Positions 1 to 18,332 of a stretch of 21,381 nt of DNA are shown here, piece after piece. Below the pieces are notes generated by a model that ran no database searches, had not been told where the DNA came from, and saw only the letters and a list, made by a program, of their open reading frames with translations. A program made the position numbers and the translations under genes. Source of the DNA: a virus (taxonomy: Duplodnaviria; Heunggongvirae; Uroviricota; Caudoviricetes); the IMG/VR virus record IMGVR_UViG_2718217709_000001; one strand, given 5' to 3'. Numbering within the stretch: the first letter of the stretch is position 1; each line of letters begins with the position of its first letter.

Positions 1-825
1 CTATTTCTTCTCTGTAATTTTTACACTGTTTTCCAACTGCTTGATGCTGACCTGCGGGGTCGGCAACTCCTCAGGCATGGTTCCGCCAAGTTCCTGAATG
101 GTTTGCCTCACCTTGCGACCCACGTCAAAGTGTGTGGTGTTTGCTTGCTGTTTTGAATTCACGCCATCCCGCTTGAGTTTTTCTTCTGTTTGGGTAGCTC
201 GAAAGAGATTAGCCGCCAGTTCTGTTGAACCCATATGATCCAGGATCTTCTGATTCTTTTTCAGCCCCTTCCGCTGATGAATAGCTTTCTGATCTAATCC
301 ACCATACAGCCCCCGGTAACCATGATTCTGAAATATGGCGAAATCGATAGCTGTCGCTCCCCCAGCTTGCTGCGCTGCCTCAACCAATTGTTTGTTATGT
401 TCTTTCAATTCATTTCTCAGAAAAAGACGCTTTTCGTCTTCACGAAGTTGCCTGAAAGCTTCATCGTCAGCCAGCTCCTGCCGTCGGGTCTGGATAGCAA
501 AATAAGTTTGCCCTGCCGCAATAACCGGTTTCGCAGGGTCGCCGTTTTGTACTACCAGGTAACAGGCATAGCGGGAGAGATGAACATCTTCAAGTTCTCG
601 TTGAGCCCCTGAACCTAATACAACCATTTTGGTGGTTTCAACGAAATGGTCAGATGCAGCTTGATTGCTGGCTTCGCACGCTTGAGTCGCGCGGGCCAGT
701 ACCTTTTGAAAATTGCGCCAGTCCCGATAATCCAGTAACGGTGCCAATTCTCTAGCTGACCAAAATTCTTGCCCTTCAGTGCCATAATGCCGTATTTCTT
801 CAAAAGGTTGATGATGTTCGTTCAT
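1..825 (-). CDS. dinD: DNA damage-inducible protein DinD (274 aa from the internal Met MNEHHQ...)
   Basis: ORF 1..837 (-) recognised as DinD by eye; start at 823-825 preferred because of GGAG-type RBS (GGAGTGGG) upstream and the 274-aa length; canonical LexA box 45 bp upstream. Confidence 0.85.
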   Translation of the reverse strand: MNEHHQPFEEIRHYGTEGQEFWSARELAPLLDYRDWRNFQKVLARATQACEASNQAASDHFVETTKMVVLGSGAQRELEDVHLSRYACYLVVQNGDPAKPVIAAGQTYFAIQTRRQELADDEAFRQLREDEKRLFLRNELKEHNKQLVEAAQQAGGATAIDFAIFQNHGYRGLYGGLDQKAIHQRKGLKKNQKILDHMGSTELAANLFRATQTEEKLKRDGVNSKQQANTTHFDVGRKVRQTIQELGGTMPEELPTPQVSIKQLENSVKITEKK

Positions 826-868
826 TGCCCACTCCATGTGATATCGATTGCAAAGAAAGTAAATCTGT

Positions 869-1521: not shown

Positions 1522-1809
1522 TTACTGTCTCTGGCAATCTTTATCGCGATAACGCCTGAAGTACCCTCTCGCTTCCTCATCCATACCAAGAGCCGAATGA
1601 GTCCGCTTAACTGCCTGTCTTAAATCTCCGAATCTGTCTGTAGTTGCTGGTTGGCGTGCCGCCTTACGGATACATTCAGAGCGTCTGTTTGCTGCATGTT
1701 CACGTTCTTTATCGCCATCTGCCAGCATCATGACTTCTGCCCATCGTGCGGCAGCTCTCCGGTATAGCCCTTTTGACTCCAGCTCTTCAGCTTTCCTGTC
1801 CCTTATCAT
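1522..1809 (-). CDS. PerC-family transcriptional activator-like protein (95 aa)
   Basis: Small basic protein whose N-terminus (RKAEELESKGLYRRAAARWAEVM) resembles PerC/Pch-type regulators as recalled; GAGG RBS 6-7 nt upstream of the ATG. No search run. Confidence 0.5.
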   Translation of the reverse strand: MIRDRKAEELESKGLYRRAAARWAEVMMLADGDKEREHAANRRSECIRKAARQPATTDRFGDLRQAVKRTHSALGMDEEARGYFRRYRDKDCQRQ

Positions 1810-4077: not shown

Positions 4078-4404
4078 ATGACTAAAAATACTCGTTTTTC
4101 CCCCGAAGTCCGTCAGCGGGCGATTCGTATGGTTCTGGAAAGTCAGGATGAATATGACTCACAGTGGGCGGCAATTTGTTCCATTGCCCCAAAGATTGGC
4201 TGTACGCCGGAGACTCTGCGTGTCTGGGTTCGCCAGCATGAGCGGGATACCGGGGGCGGTGATGGTGGGCTCACCAGCGCGGAACGTCAGCGTCTGAAAG
4301 AGCTGGAACGTGAAAATCGTGAACTGCGCCGCAGTAACGATATCCTTCGCCAGGCTTCCGCTTATTTTGCGAAGGCGGAGTTCGACCGCCTCTGGAAAAA
4401 ATGA
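4078..4404 (+). CDS. IS3-family transposase OrfA (HTH)
   Basis: 108-aa ORF ([22 protein letters not shown]...) recalled as IS629/IS1203-type OrfA; ends at the AAAAAA slippery run. Confidence 0.85.
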
Positions 4405-4818
4405 TGCCACTGCTGGATAAGCTGCGTGAGCAGTACGGGGTCGGACCGGTATGCAGCGAACTGCATATTGCCCCGTCAACGTATTACCATTGTCAGCAAC
4501 AGCGACATCATCCGGATAAACGCAGTGCCCGTGCGCAGCACGACGACTGGCTGAAGAGAGAGATACAGCGCGTATACGATGAAAATCATCAGGTGTACGG
4601 TGTGCGTAAAGTCTGGCGTCAGTTGTTACGGGAAGGAATCAGGGTGGCCAGATGTACAGTGGCACGTCTCATGGCGGTTATGGGACTTGCCGGTGTTCTC
4701 CGGGGTAAAAAGGTCCGTACGACCATCAGCCGGAAAGCCGTTGCCGCAGGCGACCGCGTAAACCGTCAGTTCGTGGCAGAACGACCTGACCAGCTGTGGG
4801 TGGCTGATTTTACTTACG
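4401..4818 (+). CDS. IS3-family transposase OrfB, 5' exon (interrupted by group II intron after ...[10 protein letters not shown])
   Basis: In-frame continuation is found at 7089; the intervening 2270 bp has group II intron boundaries. Confidence 0.75.
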
Positions 4819-5474
4819 GTGTGCCCGGAGTTCAGGGCGGGCATGGATGCTTAAATGAACCGCGAGTCTGTCTGGAATATTGAACCGGTAACTCACGATG
4901 AGAAACCCAACAATCCCACCGGGTGTGACGGTGGAGAACCTGAGCGGCAGTGACCTGCGGCATGCCCGCAGGGTGATGTAACCCGCTGACAACGGGGATT
5001 GAGGCGAGATCACTAAGCCGAGATGATCCTCAAGGTTAAGTACTGAAAGGCTGAAGAACATGAACCCGTTAATCCGCCTCTGTGGGTTGAAAACGTCACC
5101 ACGGCCTACGTGATCTGACAGGCCGTGCAGGAGGAACTGGCAGTAATACGTAAGCACTGCCGGTCGAAGGTGTTTTGACATGTATGCGAAACACCGGGGC
5201 AGCAGCGTCTATCACGCTTGCGTTGCTGACTTCTGCCAACTTGCGGCAAGCAAGGATAAAGAGTGCGACGGGCAGCCTCCTCAGTATGCCTGAGTCCAGG
5301 CAGGTAAACCGGGGAAGGTCAGCGACGGATGTTAAGGGGGCATGGCTCCGATGACGCGCTGGCTGGCGGAGCTTCCGTAGTAGTCCGCGATGGGGAAAGC
5401 CCATTACATGGCGAAGGGAAGCAGTTTGAATGTGTTTGCGACGTGAATTAACTGACCTAACGAGGTGAAGACCT

Positions 5475-6998
5475 TTGATAATCAGCGAAATGCAACGCAA
5501 GCTTGCCACATGGGCAGTCACCGATCCGTCCCTACGGATTCAACGGCTGCTGCGTCTGATAACACAACCAGAATGGCTGGCTGAAGCGGCGCGGATCACG
5601 CTTTCATCAAAGGGGGCCCATACCCCCGGCGTTGATGGCGTGAACAAAACAATGCTACAGGCCAGACTGGCTGTTGAGCTGCAAATCCTCAGGGATGAAT
5701 TACTCTCAGGCCACTACCAGCCCTTGCCCGCCAGACGGGTTTACATCCCTAAAAGCAACGGCAAACTGCGACCACTGGGTATCCCCGCGTTGCGGGATCG
5801 TATTGTTCAGCGGGCCATGCTGATGGCGATGGAGCCGATATGGGAGAGTGATTTTCATACACTCTCATATGGCTTCCGGCCTGAGCGCAGTGTCCACCAC
5901 GCTATCCGCACGGTGAAATTACAGCTCACAGACTGTGGTGAAACCCGGGGACGCTGGGTGATTGAAGGCGACCTGTCCAGTTACTTCGACACCGTACATC
6001 ATCGACTGCTGATGAAGGCTGTACGCCGCAGGATCAGTGACGCACGTTTCATGACTCTGCTGTGGAAAACCATCAAGGCGGGACATATCGATGTCGGTCT
6101 CTTTCGGGCGGCCAGTGAAGGTGTGCCACAGGGCGGTGTTATATCGCCGCTATTATCGAACATCATGCTGAATGAGTTCGATCAATACCTGCATGAGCGC
6201 TACCTGAGCGGGAAAGCCAGAAAAGATCGGTGGTACTGGAATAACAGTATCCAACGGGGCCGAAGTACGGCGGTCAGAGAAAACTGGCAGTGGAAACCCG
6301 CGGTGGCGTACTGCCGCTATGCCGATGATTTTGTCCTCATCGTCAAAGGCACCAAAGCACAGGCGGAAGCCATCAGGGAGGAGTGTCGGGGTGTGCTCGA
6401 AGGCAGTCTGAAACTCAGGCTGAACATGGATAAGACTAAAATCACCCATGTTAATGACGGCTTTATCTTTCTGGGGCACAGGATCATTCGCAAACGCAGT
6501 CGTTATGGCGAGATGCGAGTGGTCTCAACGATCCCGCAGGAGAAAGCCAGAAACTTCGCCGCATCGCTGACAGCACTGTTATCAGGCAACTACAGTGAAA
6601 GCAAAGTCGATATGGCTGAACAACTCAACCGAAAACTGAAAGGCTGGGCCATGTTCTATCAGTTCGTTGATTTTAAGGCCAAAGTCTTCAGTTATATCGA
6701 CCGTGTCGTGTTCTGGAAGCTGGCTCACTGGCTGGCCCGCAAATACCGTACAGGTATCGCTTCCCTGATGAGGTGGTGGTGTAAATCACCGAAACCGGGT
6801 CAGAGCAAAACGTGGGTTTTATTTGGTAAAACCAATCACGGCAAGCTCAGCGGCGAAATACTGTACCGGTTGGTGGGGCAAGGCAAGAAGCTGTTCCGCT
6901 GGCGGCTACCCGAAGGTAATCCCTATCTGAGGACGGAGACCAGAAACACGTATACATCGCGCTTTACAGAAGTGGCAATGGCGTTCGCCAGCATTTAA
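5475..6998 (+). CDS. Group II intron-encoded reverse transcriptase/maturase (no endonuclease domain evident)
   Basis: 507-aa ORF with RT motifs (GIPALRDRIVQRA, YADDFV) and a C-terminal maturase (X) region; no HNH-like Cys/His cluster at the C-terminus. Confidence 0.9.
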   Translation: MIISEMQRKLATWAVTDPSLRIQRLLRLITQPEWLAEAARITLSSKGAHTPGVDGVNKTMLQARLAVELQILRDELLSGHYQPLPARRVYIPKSNGKLRPLGIPALRDRIVQRAMLMAMEPIWESDFHTLSYGFRPERSVHHAIRTVKLQLTDCGETRGRWVIEGDLSSYFDTVHHRLLMKAVRRRISDARFMTLLWKTIKAGHIDVGLFRAASEGVPQGGVISPLLSNIMLNEFDQYLHERYLSGKARKDRWYWNNSIQRGRSTAVRENWQWKPAVAYCRYADDFVLIVKGTKAQAEAIREECRGVLEGSLKLRLNMDKTKITHVNDGFIFLGHRIIRKRSRYGEMRVVSTIPQEKARNFAASLTALLSGNYSESKVDMAEQLNRKLKGWAMFYQFVDFKAKVFSYIDRVVFWKLAHWLARKYRTGIASLMRWWCKSPKPGQSKTWVLFGKTNHGKLSGEILYRLVGQGKKLFRWRLPEGNPYLRTETRNTYTSRFTEVAMAFASI

Positions 6999-7003
6999 AT
7001 GGA

Positions 7004-7037
7004 GAGCCGGATGCGCTGAAAGGTGCACGTCCGGTTC
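7004..7037 (+). ncRNA. Group II intron domain V (catalytic hairpin)
   Basis: GAGCCGGATGCGCTGAAAGGTGCACGTCCGGTTC, about 50 nt before the intron 3' end. Confidence 0.7.
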
Positions 7038-7060
7038 GGGGAGGAGAGGCAGGGAAATAG

Positions 7061-7561
<501 letters not shown>

Positions 7562-7603
7562 GTTCACAGATAAAACACTCTCCAGGAAACCCGGGGCGGT
7601 TCA

Positions 7604-9395
7604 GAATGTGTTTTGCTGCTAGTTCGTATGGAGCTGTTACCCGATTAAATCTGTTTACAAACTCATTCAGCTTACCAGTAGATATTTCATGCGCTTTAGC
7701 ATTTTTTATTGCTCTGGCAACTTTGTATACATCATATAGTCCGCTCATTGTTTCTTTTGGCAAATGTTCAGCCAAAGTCTTTAGCTGTCCACTGTGTTGC
7801 AAGTTTTGCCACCAATCTGCGAAGCCAGATGGATTAAAGTCGGCCCCACGCTTCCCAGAGGAAAGCATATCTCTTAATGCTGTTCCTACTAGCTCCCTTC
7901 GCAATGTTCTTGATGGAGTATTTTGCATAATCTCACGAAACCCTCTCGCATCACCTTTTGCCATAGATTGAAGAGAATTCGTTACTTTATACGCTATATC
8001 CCCATTAAGTGTTTTCCCGCGAAGATTTACCATTTGCCTTTCTAAGTTTTTTCTCATAGCTACAAGGCGTTGTGCGACTTCGAAATCTCGCAAGTATCCA
8101 GTATTGGATAAGACAGATTTTTGGTCTTCAGCTAAAGCTCCATATAGTCTTGATAGCGCTTCTTTATCAGCATCTTTGTATGGCCCCTGCTTTTTATTTA
8201 GGGCATCACCAACTAAACGCCTTTGCCTGTTTAAATTTGCATACGTTAGGATGCTATCTGGGCCGGGGTTTATTGCTGTAAAAACTCGCTTTTCTATTGG
8301 GTCAAGATTATCCCACCCTCCTAAATCATCAGCGATTTTTTCCAGCATAGTGCTTGTGTTATTTGCTTCGACTTTTGTTCTTGGTGATAGAGCGGAATCA
8401 ACACGTTTATATAACTGATCACTACGGTTTTTTAGTGCTTCCATTCTACTATTTATCTGATAAATATATTTTTCGCTCATAGCTAACGCATCTGGCGCAC
8501 CAGCAACATCATCGATTATCTTGCCAGCACTAGAGGCTAATTCGCTTATTGCTTTATCTTCTTGAGCTTTTAACGCTGATCCTGTCCGTGACTTTAGGGC
8601 TTGCTCTACAGCTTGGTATTGCTCATTTCCTGATAAATGAGAAGGAAGAACTGAATCAACATGAAGCCTATTTGCAGCCTCAACAATTTCTTTCTGAGGT
8701 TTTAGATCTAGCCCTTCAAGCGAAGAGGCAAGATTTGGGTTGCCTTGTGCAGATAACTTACGAATTTTCTCTTCGGCAGGAGTAATCCCCTCAATATCTG
8801 GAATCGAAGAAACATTCTTCTTGGTTAATTTCCCAGCTATTTTATTAATTGCAGGGCCAGCAAGTTCGGCTACAGGGCCAGCCACAGCGCCAATAGCAGC
8901 GCCGGAAGCAACATCGCTATTTGTTCCATTGGCTACAATAGCCCCTTCTCCAGCACCAAGCCCTGCGGCGGCAGCCAGTCTTGCCGCCCCTTTGGGAACC
9001 TGAGAAATAATCCCACCACCACTAACAAATGGCGCTGCTTGTCCAACGAACTCACCAACATCTTGTGCGGTTGATGGTTTTGCCGCTAACTTCTGCTGTA
9101 GAGACTGAATTGCGGCTTGCTCTTCTGGTGTCATATCCTGAAACAGGCCAACACCTTTACCAACATCCATCAATCCACTGAGAACGCCATACATAAAACG
9201 GTCGAAACCGTTAGCATTATTAACAACATTTTCCTGTCTGGAATTTTCCTCTGGTGAAACCAAAGGTGATTGCTGCTGTTCTGGTTGGGCATCAAGCACA
9301 AAACCATCAGGAAGCTGTGAACTATCAGGAAACTGTGAGTTATCAGGTTGTTCATCGAGCACAAAACCTTCCGGTAAGATTACATTTGCTGCCAT
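7604..9395 (-). pseudogene. 5' part (597 codons) of the IS-disrupted 705-aa cargo gene: duplicated LPxGFVLDxQP N-terminal motif, Gly/Ala-rich segment, long helical region
   Basis: ORF 7368..9395 (-); residues after codon 597 are read through the IS right end and are not native; AGGA RBS upstream of the ATG at 9395. Confidence 0.7.
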
Positions 9396-10735
9396 TTTCC
9401 GTTCCTGTAAATGATTTTCTGACCAGTTTTAGGGTTGGTTGCCGTTGCGCCTTCTGATATTCCTCCGGTTGCCGCTTTTGCCTGTCCAGTGCCAGCCTGT
9501 GATGTAGGCTGCCCGGAAACATCGTCAAATAGCTTCGCTTTCCTTCTTTCAAGGCTTTTTCTTAGCCCCTGAGGAATAGTTTCTCCATATGTATCGAGAT
9601 ACTCGTCAACCTGCTGGTTAAACTGCTGCCCCATAGCATTGGCGTTGATTTTTGCGGCGTTAACAATGTTATCCTTTGCCTCCTGCGACAGGCCGTTTCC
9701 AGCATTAAGCTGGTCTATGTATCCTTTGATTTGTCCCCATATGCCATCAGACCGCATTACCTGAACCTGTTCGCCTTCACGAACGACTGACTGCGGGTCA
9801 AGAGATTTCATGTAGTTGAAGATAATCCCAAGTTGGGCAGCGCCAGTATTTACCTTGCTAAGGGCTTGCAGAGAGTTTGCCGCCGCTCTGACAGAGTTAT
9901 AATTTTTGCCAAAATTGGTAATGTCAGAATTTAATCCCTTAATTAAGTCTGCTGACGGCTTACCTTTTTGCCCCAGCTCCATTAGCTTCAATCCCATCTC
10001 ATCTGAGTGAATTTGTGCTCGCTGAGCCCTGTCTAGTTGAGCGTTCTGGATATTTGCCCATCCTCTCGCGTTCTCCATGTCAGCCTGACGCATACTTTCA
10101 TCCAGTCGCCCTTGCTCAAGTCGACGACCTTCCATTTGATCTTTGATATCGAAATACTTCTCATGACCGAGAGAAAACAGCGCCAGATTACCTGCGAAAT
10201 GCTGGAAGCCCTGCGGGTCATTAACCTGCATTTCAGCAATAGTTTCTGGAGGGATACCTAAACGACGCATCTCCTGCTCATTATCCATCATGAACCTGCC
10301 AAATGCGCCCTGACCAAGCGATGAGGCTACCTGTGCTTTGAGCGCCAGATTGCCATAATCATCCCTTTGAGCATCATCGACATAACTCATCCCTTTACGG
10401 ACTTCCTCAAACTCTTCTGGGAATGCTGTAATAAGATTACGCATCTGCTCCCTGTCACCGGACGCATAAGCATCTGCATAACCTTTCTGGAATGCCGCTT
10501 TACGTTCCTGCTGTTGCTGCTGCTTATAAATGTCAGCAACTCCAGCCAGACCACGAAGACCTGTCAGAGCAACGTTATTTGCACCTGAGCGAGCCAGTTC
10601 ATTGTTTTCGCGGATCAGACCAAGCGTTGCGTTAATGTCGCTTGCCTTTGGCGCATTCTCATTTTGCGCACCGATGCCAGCCAGAAAACCACCAGAATTA
10701 ATACCCTGTTGCCACGTAGCCATAAATTTACCCAC
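9380..10735 (-). CDS. Hypothetical Gln/Asn/Ala-rich, predicted coiled-coil protein (about 450 aa; likely ATG start at 10723)
   Basis: Long ORF with no Walker or nuclease motif seen; its end overlaps the start of the next gene by 16 nt; the track start at 10735 is GTG, ATG at 10723 follows the upstream stop by 4 nt. Confidence 0.65.
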   Translation of the reverse strand: MGKFMATWQQGINSGGFLAGIGAQNENAPKASDINATLGLIRENNELARSGANNVALTGLRGLAGVADIYKQQQQQERKAAFQKGYADAYASGDREQMRNLITAFPEEFEEVRKGMSYVDDAQRDDYGNLALKAQVASSLGQGAFGRFMMDNEQEMRRLGIPPETIAEMQVNDPQGFQHFAGNLALFSLGHEKYFDIKDQMEGRRLEQGRLDESMRQADMENARGWANIQNAQLDRAQRAQIHSDEMGLKLMELGQKGKPSADLIKGLNSDITNFGKNYNSVRAAANSLQALSKVNTGAAQLGIIFNYMKSLDPQSVVREGEQVQVMRSDGIWGQIKGYIDQLNAGNGLSQEAKDNIVNAAKINANAMGQQFNQQVDEYLDTYGETIPQGLRKSLERRKAKLFDDVSGQPTSQAGTGQAKAATGGISEGATATNPKTGQKIIYRNGKWQQM

Positions 10736-16079: not shown

Positions 16080-16270
16080 TTTTCACCACCAAGAATTACC
16101 AGCTCTGCACGGGCATCGTTAACCAAAGATGAGCACGCTTTAATCGCATCCACGACATCAGCAGCGTCCATTTCTTCAGCCGAAAGACTGACAGCAACCA
16201 GGACAGCCGCTGCTTGCTCGATTAATTGAAGTGCGGACGTAAGGCGAGGGGTATTAATTGAGTTATTCAT
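16076..16270 (-). CDS. Hypothetical small protein (64 aa)
   Basis: 4-nt overlap with the downstream gene; start overlaps the upstream reading frame. Confidence 0.4.
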   Translation of the reverse strand: MNNSINTPRLTSALQLIEQAAAVLVAVSLSAEEMDAADVVDAIKACSSLVNDARAELVILGGEK

Positions 16271-16481
16271 TGGTTGCCCCCGTTTTTACTGGCATTTCGC
16301 CACCTTCCAGCAGGAAATGAACGTCACGAACGGCGAGATCCAATATCGCGAGTAACGCCTTCAGTCTTTCGTCTCGTGAGGGAGAGTTGCTCACCAGAAT
16401 GTCGTTAATCACTTCTGTCAGTGTGATGATCTGGCTTGTGCGTTCGAGGGGATCCATATGCACATCGTAGGTTTTAATCAT
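16263..16481 (-). CDS. Hypothetical small protein (72 aa, MIKTYDVH...), possibly the independent 3' end of the long open frame
   Basis: ATG overlaps the stop of the 64-aa MLATT gene (ATGATTAA); same frame as the 355-aa ORF. Confidence 0.35.
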   Translation of the reverse strand: MIKTYDVHMDPLERTSQIITLTEVINDILVSNSPSRDERLKALLAILDLAVRDVHFLLEGGEMPVKTGATNE

Positions 16482-17330
16482 GTGCCACCTCCATGCGGAT
16501 ACGACCAGCAAAAAAGCAGACGTGATCGCGCACCAGAGAACGGCGAGCATCGCGTTCAGACTCGGCAGCAATATGATGAATTTTGGCGGTAATTGTCGGG
16601 CAATCGCGGCGAACTGCGGCGATAATCCAGATAAATTGCGTTTTTTGGGTAGGGGTAGTAGCCAGCATGTGGCAGCCTCCTTCAGATAGCAGGTTACGCT
16701 ACCACCGGAAACGCCAATTTCGCTGGTGGTAGCCCAGACAGGGTTGGCGTAACCGGCTCTGAAGGATACCGGCGCTTCCGAAGAAGCCCCCGCCTGAGCC
16801 ACCATTGATTGACAAAGGCGCTGGATTATACACCAACGCCCAAAAAATGGGTGAGTCAGACCTACGACATAAAAAAAGACGCTTGGCGCGTCATATGTCG
16901 CCTTCAGAATTTTTAGGACGCCAATCCCGGCACCCGTTTTATGAGGTGCCTTATAACCATAAACCGTGTTGCCGCATAACGGCAAGCTCTTTTTTATGGA
17001 CTCCGAAAACTCACTATTGGAAGAACCAGAAGCACAGTACATCGCGCTCATTTCGTTAACGTCACGCGCGTGGACGAAGGTTTTTGTGGAGTCACTACAC
17101 GAGCAGAGAAAGCCATCTACGACCAGAAATTCTCTGGCATAGCCGCTGACCTTCTCAACGCTAACACCATCGACCGTAATTTCTGACATAGTTAAGGCAT
17201 CCGCTCCTACCACCAGCAAATGATAAACTTTGCTTGTATCTGCTGTATTAATGTCTGACTTTGCTGTCATATTGCTGGATTTTGGCGACATACCAGCCAG
17301 TGAAAATATCTTCTTCTGGGCGGTTAGCAT
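16263..17330 (-). CDS. Long open frame (355 aa); 5' part looks like a genuine gene, 3' extent doubtful
   Basis: GGAGG RBS and ATG overlapping the upstream stop by 4 nt; the frame stays open to 16263 but overlaps two well-formed small genes with poor codon usage there. Confidence 0.35.
16474..16668 (-). CDS. Hypothetical small protein (64 aa, MLATTPTQ...)
   Basis: Strong RBS AAGGAGG 7 nt upstream; all eight Arg codons are CGC/CGT and Leu mostly CTG, whereas the alternative long frame uses CTA/TTA/AGG/ATA here. Confidence 0.45.
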   Translation of the reverse strand: MLATTPTQKTQFIWIIAAVRRDCPTITAKIHHIAAESERDARRSLVRDHVCFFAGRIRMEVAHD

Positions 17331-17506
17331 TTGTTAACCTCCGCGAACTCCTTCATGAAACGTGCCAGCGGTTGTACGCATGGCGATTGATACCCGTCGC
17401 GATAAAACGTCACTCGGTTGTGAGACACGCTTTCGACAGTAACGAGTGCTCCGTGGGCATCTTTGTAGCGTTTTTGAGGTTGTGGTGTTCCTGTCGGCTT
17501 AAACAT
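17324..17506 (-). CDS. Small prophage-type protein (60 aa), DUF4222-like as recalled
   Basis: ATG 2 nt after the AntA-like stop; the 89-aa track ORF would overlap the upstream gene. Confidence 0.5.
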   Translation of the reverse strand: MFKPTGTPQPQKRYKDAHGALVTVESVSHNRVTFYRDGYQSPCVQPLARFMKEFAEVNKC

Positions 17507-18332
17507 GGACCGCCTCCAGACGCTTGGCGAGCCAGCGTTGCGACAGGCGGGTGAGTTCTCCTTTGCGCTGCTCATATTCCATGCCCATATCAATTAACGT
17601 GATATTGGTGCTTTCGAGATATGAGAGGTGCTCAAGCTGTTCTGCGTTCATATGGTCGCGAGGTTCGCCAGAATAGCCATTTATCCGCGCCCACTGCTTA
17701 GCAGTTAGCCCACCAAGAACGATACGAGAAATCATATTGCTCTCGTTTGTGTAGTGGTGTTGCTGCGTCGTTTTCCCCATCTCGGCACGGGCCATATTCA
17801 GCGCATCGCACATTGGCTTGAAGTTGTTTGCGGCACTGATACGGGCTTTTAGCTGGCGACGATAGCGGGCGGCGATTTCAGGCACGCTACGCTGTAATTC
17901 TTTCTCGCACTGGATGAAATAACGGCGGATAGCGCGACCCTGATCATTGCGTTCGATCATTGCCAGTTCTTTCGCCATTCCGACACTTAACAGATAGTCT
18001 TTGCCGGGTCTGCCAGACTGCTTAATCTTGCTGTAAGCCGCGTCATTCGGGCTTTTCCCCAAATTTGGGGAAATTGTTTTATGGACTGAGTAATCGTGCC
18101 CAATGGTGAAGTCATATTCAGAGATGCGATCAGTGATCCATGTAGAGAAGTCTTTTCCCACGCCCAACGCTTTGTGTAACGCTTTTGCGCTAACAATATT
18201 GGTTTCACGCCCGCCTATATGACCAGAAATAACCGGGACAATTGCGGCAAATTCATTACCGTTAATTGTGCCCAGAGAGGCGTTCAGATGAGGGGCGGCC
18301 TCAGAAATTAATCTGCTTTTTTCGATGTTCAT
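17499..18332 (-). CDS. Phage antirepressor-like protein (AntA-type domain)
   Basis: 277-aa ORF; segment DYLLSVGMAKELAMIERNDQGRAIRRYFIQCEKEL matches the AntA/AntB antirepressor signature as recalled; GGAG RBS upstream. Confidence 0.6.
   Translation of the reverse strand: MNIEKSRLISEAAPHLNASLGTINGNEFAAIVPVISGHIGGRETNIVSAKALHKALGVGKDFSTWITDRISEYDFTIGHDYSVHKTISPNLGKSPNDAAYSKIKQSGRPGKDYLLSVGMAKELAMIERNDQGRAIRRYFIQCEKELQRSVPEIAARYRRQLKARISAANNFKPMCDALNMARAEMGKTTQQHHYTNESNMISRIVLGGLTAKQWARINGYSGEPRDHMNAEQLEHLSYLESTNITLIDMGMEYEQRKGELTRLSQRWLAKRLEAVHV

Follow-up and report, generated by a model that had tools for sequence, protein, structure and literature searches.

The segment at positions 16263-17330 (minus strand) of the IMG/VR virus record IMGVR_UViG_2718217709_000001 (Caudoviricetes), a stretch of 21,381 nucleotides (nt) that is called the window below, probably serves a P4-like satellite island as its RNA-based immunity region. 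The 355-amino-acid (aa) open reading frame (ORF) that fills this segment is interpreted as an eta-like read-through ORF, which contains the genes of two RNAs, overlies a Kil/Icd-like gene and ends together with a 72-aa ORF. A reading of the letters alone (the sequence-only reading) had reported the 355-codon ORF with its coupled start and GGAGG, a 64-aa ORF, a large inverted repeat and a hairpin with a U7 tail, all of which were recovered at the same positions; the two RNA genes, the in-frame position of the 72-aa ORF and the precedent of P4 eta/kil had escaped it. The features of the segment are as follows.

16263-17330, minus strand: eta-like read-through ORF, 355 aa, named 'ash family protein' by the Prokaryotic Genome Annotation Pipeline (PGAP)
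16956-16985, minus strand: predicted PLE-like promoter (-35 TTGCCG at 16985-16980, 18-nt spacer, -10 TATGGT at 16961-16956)
16872-16949, minus strand: IsrK/seqA leader RNA (Rfam RF01394, 60.5 bits, gathering score 50)
16924-16918, minus strand: IsrK target site a1, UUGGCGU
16908-16901, minus strand: IsrK target site b1/seqA, UCUGAAGG, complementary to the C4 loop
16892-16878 (stem) and 16877-16871 (T7), minus strand: IsrK intrinsic terminator, from a terminator scan
16722-16809, minus strand: C4/CI antisense (immunity) RNA (Rfam RF01695, full-length match, 79.9 bits, gathering score 45)
16766-16758, minus strand: seqB loop of C4, UCCUUCAGA
about 16755-16745, minus strand: C4 junction, GGUUACGCCAA
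16676-16721, minus strand: seqC, the a'b' target region, with AUUGGCGU, GGUGGUAGC, GCGUAACC (16699-16692) and UCUGAAGGA (16686-16678)
16474-16668, minus strand: kil/icd-like gene, 64 aa (NCBIfam NF033153 phage_ICD_like, 3.9e-20)
16263-16481, minus strand: 72-aa ORF with an AUG that shares nucleotides with the kil stop (AUGAUUAA); its frame and its end are those of the long ORF
16699-16836, minus strand: 45-aa ORF with a TTG start, lying over C4

The window is 100% identical to a stretch of an Escherichia coli chromosome between yicC and dinD, and the entire 1068-nt segment is present in approximately 480 complete E. coli genomes (89-100% identity). The enterotoxigenic (ETEC) strain H10407 has the locus at NC_017633.1 340485-342185, with 99.5% identity. 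The genes of the island are arranged in the order integrase, AlpA-type helix-turn-helix (HTH) protein, 143-aa ORF, AntA antirepressor (17499-18332, upstream of the long ORF), DUF4222, 355-aa ORF, four small ORFs and P4-alpha-type primase; the flanking genes are under purifying selection. GGAGG precedes the ATG of the long ORF (17330) by 7 nt, and this ATG overlaps the stop codon of the upstream DUF4222 gene (ATGCTAA); at the other end, the TAA of the long ORF overlaps the ATG of the following gene (ATGAATAA). The translated ORF matched Pfam PF10554 (Phage_ASH) with 117.2 bits (cut-off 26) over residues 124-232, which is exactly the span of isrK and C4.

The hairpin with the U7 tail is the terminator of the IsrK/seqA leader RNA, and the minimum free energy fold of the C4 RNA downstream of it shows the same three-helix shape (-46.4 kcal/mol). 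The candidate promoter ends 6 nt ahead of the IsrK 5' end; TTGCCG-18-TATGGT of the window aligns column for column with TTGCCT-18-TATAGT of phage P4 in an alignment of the window, two E. coli relatives and P4, and the P4 hexamer is the one annotated as 'consensus -10' in X02534. A perfect TATAAT is present at 16825-16830 (minus strand) in the spacer between IsrK and C4, approximately 16 nt before the C4 5' end; it is kept in locus L003, reads TATAGC in L004, does not occur in the consensus of other clades, and is accompanied by no -35 hexamer that could be found. It may represent a separate promoter for the C4 RNA.

The sequence-only reading had regarded the inverted repeat either as an operator or as an RNA structure controlling the small genes, and the latter proposal was essentially right: the repeat consists of the 3' half of the C4/CI RNA (RF01695) and its target at the Shine-Dalgarno (SD) sequence of kil. 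The C4 loop UCCUUCAGA matches both UCUGAAGG in IsrK (16758-16765/16901-16908, 8 nt, 100%) and UCUGAAGGA at the SD sequence (16678-16686/16758-16766, 9 nt, 100%), and the latter site overlaps the kil SD sequence AAGGAGG (16682-16676), 9 nt ahead of the kil ATG. A second element is formed by the C4 junction GGUUACGCCAA, which matches UUGGCGU in IsrK and GCGUAACC downstream; together with the pair GGUGGUAGC/GCUACCACC this element makes up the reported palindrome, whose repeats are 16688-16699/16747-16758 (12 nt, 92%) and 16698-16706/16725-16733 (9 nt, 100%). RNAduplex gave -44.4 kcal/mol for the pairing of C4 nt 37-72 with the seqC region (z -5.8, 0 of 300 shuffles). The loop of the second C4 hairpin, the site at IsrK position 42 and the site ending in the kil SD sequence covary three ways between the window, L003, L004 and P4. 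Over 78 unique loci, the covariation of loop and target comprised at least 26 specificities, with a complementarity of 7.8/8.7 nt for cognate and 5.7/5.8 nt for non-cognate combinations, and in the relatives the downstream C4 match typically stops 9-10 nt before the kil ATG. The immunity specificity of the window (UCUGAAGG) differs from that of P4 (UUCACAGG). Two close relatives, L003 and L007, are 98-99% identical to the window in the flanking genes and 30% different, with no indels, in the isrK-C4 block (16669-16985). Loop/target sequences also differ between islands (UCUGAAGG in the window versus GUACAAGG), and from the sequences the block looks like an exchanged immunity-specificity cassette.

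The 64-aa ORF starts 7 nt after the kil SD sequence, and the sequence-only reading was correct in describing its Arg codons as exclusively CGC or CGT (8 of 8); rare codons are absent from it. The protein aligns with P4 Kil, which is the C-terminal 65 aa of Eta, and its own frame varies by codon position at 0.59/0.60/1.10, a third-position excess. It would be the first gene translated from the predicted internal promoter. The reported difference in codon usage within the long frame was reproduced as well: where it overlaps the 64-aa ORF it contains six strictly rare codons plus three TTA per 62 codons (CTA x3, TTA x3, ATA, AGG, CGA), compared with 4/115 and 3/106 upstream. The 72-aa ORF had been described as a further gene overlapped by the long frame; the stop-codon map instead places it in the same frame, nested, and only the 64-aa ORF is out of frame. 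The 72-aa ORF has a pN/pS (the ratio of nonsynonymous to synonymous differences) of 0.10-0.23 versus L002 and L007, and it yielded no match in Pfam, NCBIfam or PHROGs.

Comparisons were based on 80 loci fetched by Kil homology from different Enterobacterales; counts out of 81 refer to this set of related loci. As nhmmer with single-sequence queries overlooked some copies of C4 and isrK, gaps were filled from Rfam matches. The two RNA genes lie upstream of kil in all 40 kil-homologous loci tested. From the start of IsrK to the ribosome-binding site (RBS) of kil, 78/81 loci lack any stop in the eta frame, as do 19/19 diverse representatives, which is far beyond chance; neither of the other two frames is ever open (0/81 each, with means of 4.1 and 2.6 stops). 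Openness extends to the variable segments (60 nt upstream, the isrK-C4 spacer, and the end of C4 to the kil ATG; entropy above 1 bit), which are stop-free in the eta frame, not in the others, in 75-77 of 77 unique loci. The isrK-to-C4 spacings of 101, 125, 128, 140, 143, 146, 176 and 185 nt are all congruent modulo 3, and the two loci with a spacing of 139 nt have broken frames. In most loci the first ATG available to the frame overlaps the stop codon of the ORF before it (ATGA in 39/74 unique loci, +7/+8 in 11/74).

The peptide itself shows no protein-like constraint. Column entropy in the eta frame is flat by codon position (0.98/1.06/1.08 in the spacer and 1.29/1.18/1.29 upstream), and the conservation of the Ash domain coincides with isrK and C4 and shows no third-position relaxation. 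Between the window and L003/L007 the isrK-C4 block is 70% identical, with 93 differences spread 35/27/31 over the codon positions, a pN/pS of 0.9 and neither indel nor stop. Regarding the N-terminal 125 aa, a comparison with 5.8 billion proteins yielded only close relatives from E. coli and Salmonella, none below approximately 66-80% identity, and searches of Pfam, NCBIfam and PHROGs were all negative; constraint on this part is weak (pN/pS 0.43-0.57). In other genera the N-terminal extension consists of unrelated sequence of 26 to more than 200 codons, still open, and a motif MLxAxQKKxFSLAG recurs in several genera. The extensions of L009, L011, L012 and L018 contain repeated units, e.g. F-x-TSTR, whose last part is encoded just upstream of the PLE -35 hexamer; this suggests tandem duplication of promoter-proximal DNA. 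Within the kil overlap, the differences fall on kil third positions (21-26 versus 4-12), and the identity of Kil is 72-88%, whereas that of the long-frame peptide is 52-68%; the overlap is not dual protein coding. Of the genuine overprinting that the sequence-only reading had offered as one possibility, there remains a long frame that is probably translated; a second selected protein does not remain, given the third-position substitutions and the faster divergence of its peptide compared with Kil. As openness is conserved without codon-position bias, selection is placed on an open, translated frame (ribosome transit) and not on the peptide, which seems the simplest reading and fits the model of P4 eta. 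This comparative evidence that the 'Ash' frame stays open without amino-acid constraint is new here.

A search for distant DNA similarity led to phage P4, in which the annotation of this stretch reads 'put. ash gene (aa 1-137)' or 'cI gene product'. IsrK corresponds to P4 seqA and C4 to the P4 CI immunity RNA (PMC3632133, PMC4825925). The passages on P4 in PMC10111431 describe eta as coupled to an upstream alpA homologue (citing Forti et al. 1999, J Bacteriol 181:5225) and as containing a constitutive promoter, whose transcript is terminated via pairing of CI with seqA and is processed to CI; in the same passages Kil is a truncated in-frame form of Eta, and translation of eta from the late promoter PLL, located upstream, prevents termination. 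According to these passages and PMC4825925, it is for P4 only that CI is known to be made by RNase P/PNPase processing, and that CI-dependent premature termination is known to occur at the Rho-dependent site timm and to be relieved by eta translation. The window resembles P4 in the order and spacing of isrK, C4 and kil inside eta (197 codons in P4), with IsrK and C4 at equal relative positions, and in an eta frame that gives the same Phage_ASH match over these RNAs. It further resembles P4 in the homologous hexamers of the candidate promoter, in a C4 loop complementary to the leader site and the kil SD sequence, and in the homology of Kil. Both have a long ORF whose start is coupled to the gene before it and which runs across PLE (the PLE-like site in the window), seqA, cI and seqC, with a P4-alpha-type primase downstream and an alpA gene and an integrase upstream. 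The principal difference is that kil is the in-frame, co-terminal C-terminal part of P4 eta, whereas the eta frame of the window is +1 to kil and co-terminal with the 72-aa gene. The window ORF also carries an orphan N-terminal extension of approximately 128 codons, three extra genes (143 aa, AntA and DUF4222) separate alpA from eta, and no epsilon homologue is present directly downstream.

The immI region of phages P1 and P7 (c4 - icd - ant) shares with the window a C4-family RNA with two recognition elements, which pair with a1/b1 upstream and a'/b' downstream, and a b' lying over the RBS of a small gene for a cell-division inhibitor of the Icd type (Rfam C4, c4-a1b1; NCBIfam phage_ICD_like); the isrK portion of the query also gave matches to P1-like phages. 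Unlike immI, the window has no antirepressor coupled downstream of icd: the coupled gene is the 72-aa ORF, which belongs to no family, AntA is located upstream, and the downstream genes are small ORFs and the primase. In the isrK - orf45 - anrP region of Salmonella Gifsy-1, IsrK with its leaky terminator is followed by a processed RNA of approximately 80 nt, STnc1160, which has been likened to P4 CI; orf45 is translated across STnc1160, its nucleotides are conserved and its peptide is not, and its translation serves coupling (PMC4825925). An IsrK followed by a C4/CI-like RNA and an ORF that crosses the RNA are thus common to both, but the ORF of Gifsy-1 begins beyond the terminator of IsrK and has an antirepressor coupled to it, whereas the window frame opens 381 nt upstream of IsrK. 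The 45-aa TTG ORF was considered as an analogue of orf45 and rejected, as it has no family match and stops occur within C4 in that phase in 42/77 relatives. In phage records H81-H88 and H93-H94 (SfV orf37 'immunity region', Stx phages and phage Ayreon) the isrK-C4 block is located inside antirepressor, Rha or 'immunity region' genes. The RNA module moves between satellites and helper-type (lambdoid, SfV-like) phages.

By homology with P4, a weak constitutive PLE-like promoter inside the long ORF (16985-16956) would start an untranslated leader, the first 78 nt of which would be the IsrK/seqA RNA, terminator included. Read-through transcripts would carry the C4/CI RNA, which would be excised and accumulate. 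Its hairpin-2 loop and the adjacent junction would pair with a1/b1 in the leader and also with a'/b' downstream, where b' covers the kil/icd SD sequence; this pairing would block the translation of kil and cause premature termination, keeping the replication genes (primase operon) off. The long frame, as the counterpart of P4 eta, would be translated only on transcripts from the upstream AlpA-AntA-DUF4222 operon, since coupling ties its ATG to the stop codon of DUF4222. Ribosomes crossing the promoter, the leader terminator, C4 and the kil region would keep the RNA from folding and pairing and would keep Rho off, and induced transcription would thereby escape immunity. Translation as an act would matter, whereas the peptide would not.

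The geometry of the frames is the second point that is new here, in an otherwise known system: an eta offset by +1 from kil that shares its end with the following gene, in the window 211 nt beyond the kil stop. In P4 and 72 of the loci, kil and the long frame are read in the same phase and have a common stop codon; the window shares the +1 arrangement with nine loci (Escherichia, Klebsiella michiganensis, Pluralibacter, Leclercia, Symbiopectobacterium and Buttiauxella). Small indels that fall between C4 and the start codon of kil gave rise to the offset, in at least three sequence contexts (window type, L010 and L018); in the window the indel is located in the spacer between the SD sequence and the AUG of kil, with the consequence that the long frame overprints kil and runs into the frame of the following gene. 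The fusion event postulated in the sequence-only reading is partly borne out in this form, as a shift of the long frame by +1 relative to P4 and most relatives. All ten shifted loci are open across kil, and in nine of them the frame carries on through the following gene, which has an AUG overlapping the stop of kil, and closes where that gene ends. In the kil clade of the window, six of seven in-frame relatives have a stop in the +1 frame versus none of the ten shifted loci. A programmed -1 frameshift from the long frame into kil at CCCAAAAAAC was rejected as a candidate: read in that frame, the A-run does not form a canonical X XXY YYZ site, and L003 has A5 there.

Several points weigh against the interpretation as a read-through frame maintained by selection. 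Promoter activity, RNA processing, termination and the anti-termination role of translation are all carried over from P4; what was observed in the window and its relatives comprises the RNA genes, the complementarities with their covariation, the homology of Kil, and conserved openness and coupling without amino-acid-level constraint. The PLE-like site was not found by a generic sigma-70 scan (consensus match 8/12), so the candidate promoter rests on the P4 alignment. Stops occur in the eta frame of 3/81 loci, and since the loci are phylogenetically related and are not independent events, the counts overstate independence. Natural variants cut the long frame at the T-run of the terminator, giving forms of 155 aa and 210 aa in dozens of assemblies; the full frame is accordingly not indispensable for the persistence of the island. 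Finally, the +1 frame over kil is also stop-free in 42/72 (58%) of the in-frame loci. As an open +1 frame is this common, the extension through kil needs little or no selection, and the proposal that openness over kil proves overprinting was discarded. With respect to the truncated forms, the database proteins P0001, P0009, P0019, P0007 and P0012 end in ...SVFFMS* (155 aa) or run in another frame to ...NWRFRW* (210 aa), which is attributable to the loss or gain of one base in the T7 run (16871-16877); the homopolymer is a natural frameshift hot spot of the long ORF. Exact T6 and T8 versions of the 86-mer of the window were found 0 times each and the T7 version 13 times in complete E. coli genomes, a comparison that is blurred by sequence variation. 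One may speculate that the T7 tract of the IsrK terminator acts as a mutational on/off switch for read-through competence.

If the 355-aa ORF were a pure annotation artefact, a non-coding leader plus small genes with nothing translated from 17330 and with one frame free of stops by chance through the constraints of the embedded RNAs and adjoining real genes, then the flat codon-position variability and pN/pS of approximately 0.9 in the isrK-C4 block, the orphan N-terminal part with its pN/pS of 0.43-0.57 and the frameshifted natural variants would find a ready explanation, and the '137-aa cI/ash protein' of P4 on the same region was indeed later superseded by an RNA factor (PMC4825925). This is nevertheless unlikely: the variable segments are stop-free in the eta frame in 75-77 of 77 unique loci and not in other frames, every spacer length class keeps the frame, most loci show coupling of the start with the preceding stop codon, the unrelated N-terminal extensions remain free of stops over lengths from 26 to more than 200 codons, and the passages on P4 in PMC10111431 cite an experimental precedent for eta translation. 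The opposite proposal, that the ORF encodes a functional 355-aa 'Ash/Bro-network' regulator which hosts the RNA genes and overprints kil with selection on both proteins, is very improbable. It could draw on the Pfam Phage_ASH match of 117 bits, on PHROG families labelled transcriptional repressor or regulator, on the fusion of the Ash domain to Rha/Ant-type domains in lambdoid prophages (annotations; PMC10111431) and on the motif MLxAxQKKxFSLAG. The Ash conservation, however, coincides exactly with isrK and C4 without third-position relaxation, and the 'repressor' labels go back to the obsolete cI-protein annotation of P4; in the kil overlap the substitutions lie on kil third positions and the long-frame peptide diverges further (52-68% versus 72-88% identity), and the N-terminal regions of the relatives are unrelated in sequence and length.

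As to the +1 shift and the fusion with the 72-aa gene, both might possibly be neutral or degenerative damage, devoid of function, to a P4-type eta/kil pair whose island is decaying. Such a lesion would be in line with the small indels that produced the offset ahead of the kil AUG, downstream of C4, with a +1 frame of kil that is stop-free in 58% of the in-frame loci, so that a shift often gives a long fusion for free, and with the insertion sequence (IS) and group II intron elsewhere in the island; it is less easily reconciled with shifted forms in at least seven genera and at least three indel contexts, all ten open where six of seven in-frame relatives of the clade have a stop, with the purifying selection on flanking genes and with a full-length arrangement in approximately 480 complete E. 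coli genomes. An adaptive offset, in which ribosomes on induced transcripts from the upstream promoter traverse the start region and coding sequence of kil out of frame, read-through protection is kept, the toxic Kil/Icd domain is not made in the read-through product and internal initiation at the kil SD sequence is occluded, is rather unlikely; if true, it would uncouple anti-termination from cell killing. An eta-like read-through frame of a P4-like immunity region remains the preferred interpretation of the long ORF.

Other features of the island outside the immunity region are listed below. The group II intron may interrupt the IS3-family element.

1-837, minus strand: Bro-N (DinD) gene at the window edge
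1522-1809, minus strand: PerC-family activator gene
4078-4404, plus strand: orfA (HTH_Tnp_1) of an IS3-family element
4359-4475, plus strand: ALIL frameshift pseudoknot of the same element
4401-4883, plus strand: orfB of the same element (HTH_21 part only)
5475-6998, plus strand: reverse transcriptase/maturase ORF of a group II intron, after the IS3-family element
7002-7088, plus strand: domain V/VI of the group II intron
7368-9395, minus strand: 675-aa ORF without family, adjoining the translocase-like gene
9380-10735, minus strand: P22 injectosome translocase-like gene (Inj_translocase, 2.5e-73)

Regarding annotation, a Kil/Icd-like gene and both RNA genes are hidden across hundreds of E. 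coli genomes by the naming of the 355-aa product as 'ash family protein'. Among the RefSeq records concerned (L001 18077-19507; L003 1314-2744; L002 1712-2280), those with this call lack annotation of the Kil/Icd-like gene, of the 72-aa ORF and of the two RNAs, and in one record with the same open frame PGAP inconsistently reports an Icd-like gene and an 'ash' pseudogene instead. PF10554 maps onto isrK and C4 in the eta frame, at 16635-16961 (minus strand) of the window and 2443-2817 of P4 (L006). Phage_ASH is the eta-frame translation of this DNA, its P4 seed being the 'put. ash/cI gene aa 1-137' ORF, and PF10554 and several PHROG 'repressor' families are translations of RNA genes. A survey of P4-like satellites took PF10554 as the profile for epsilon ('Ash') (PMC8628076), whereas P4 epsilon is a separate family, PF25738; because PF10554 maps onto isrK and C4, this marker detects the immunity region and not epsilon.

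For P4-like satellites, the co-varying triplets of loop and targets are a direct read-out of immunity specificity types, of which at least 26 occur here. The apparent coding paradox of this segment is settled with a testable mechanism, and the region provides a natural example of a selected open frame without a selected peptide, extending over two RNA genes.

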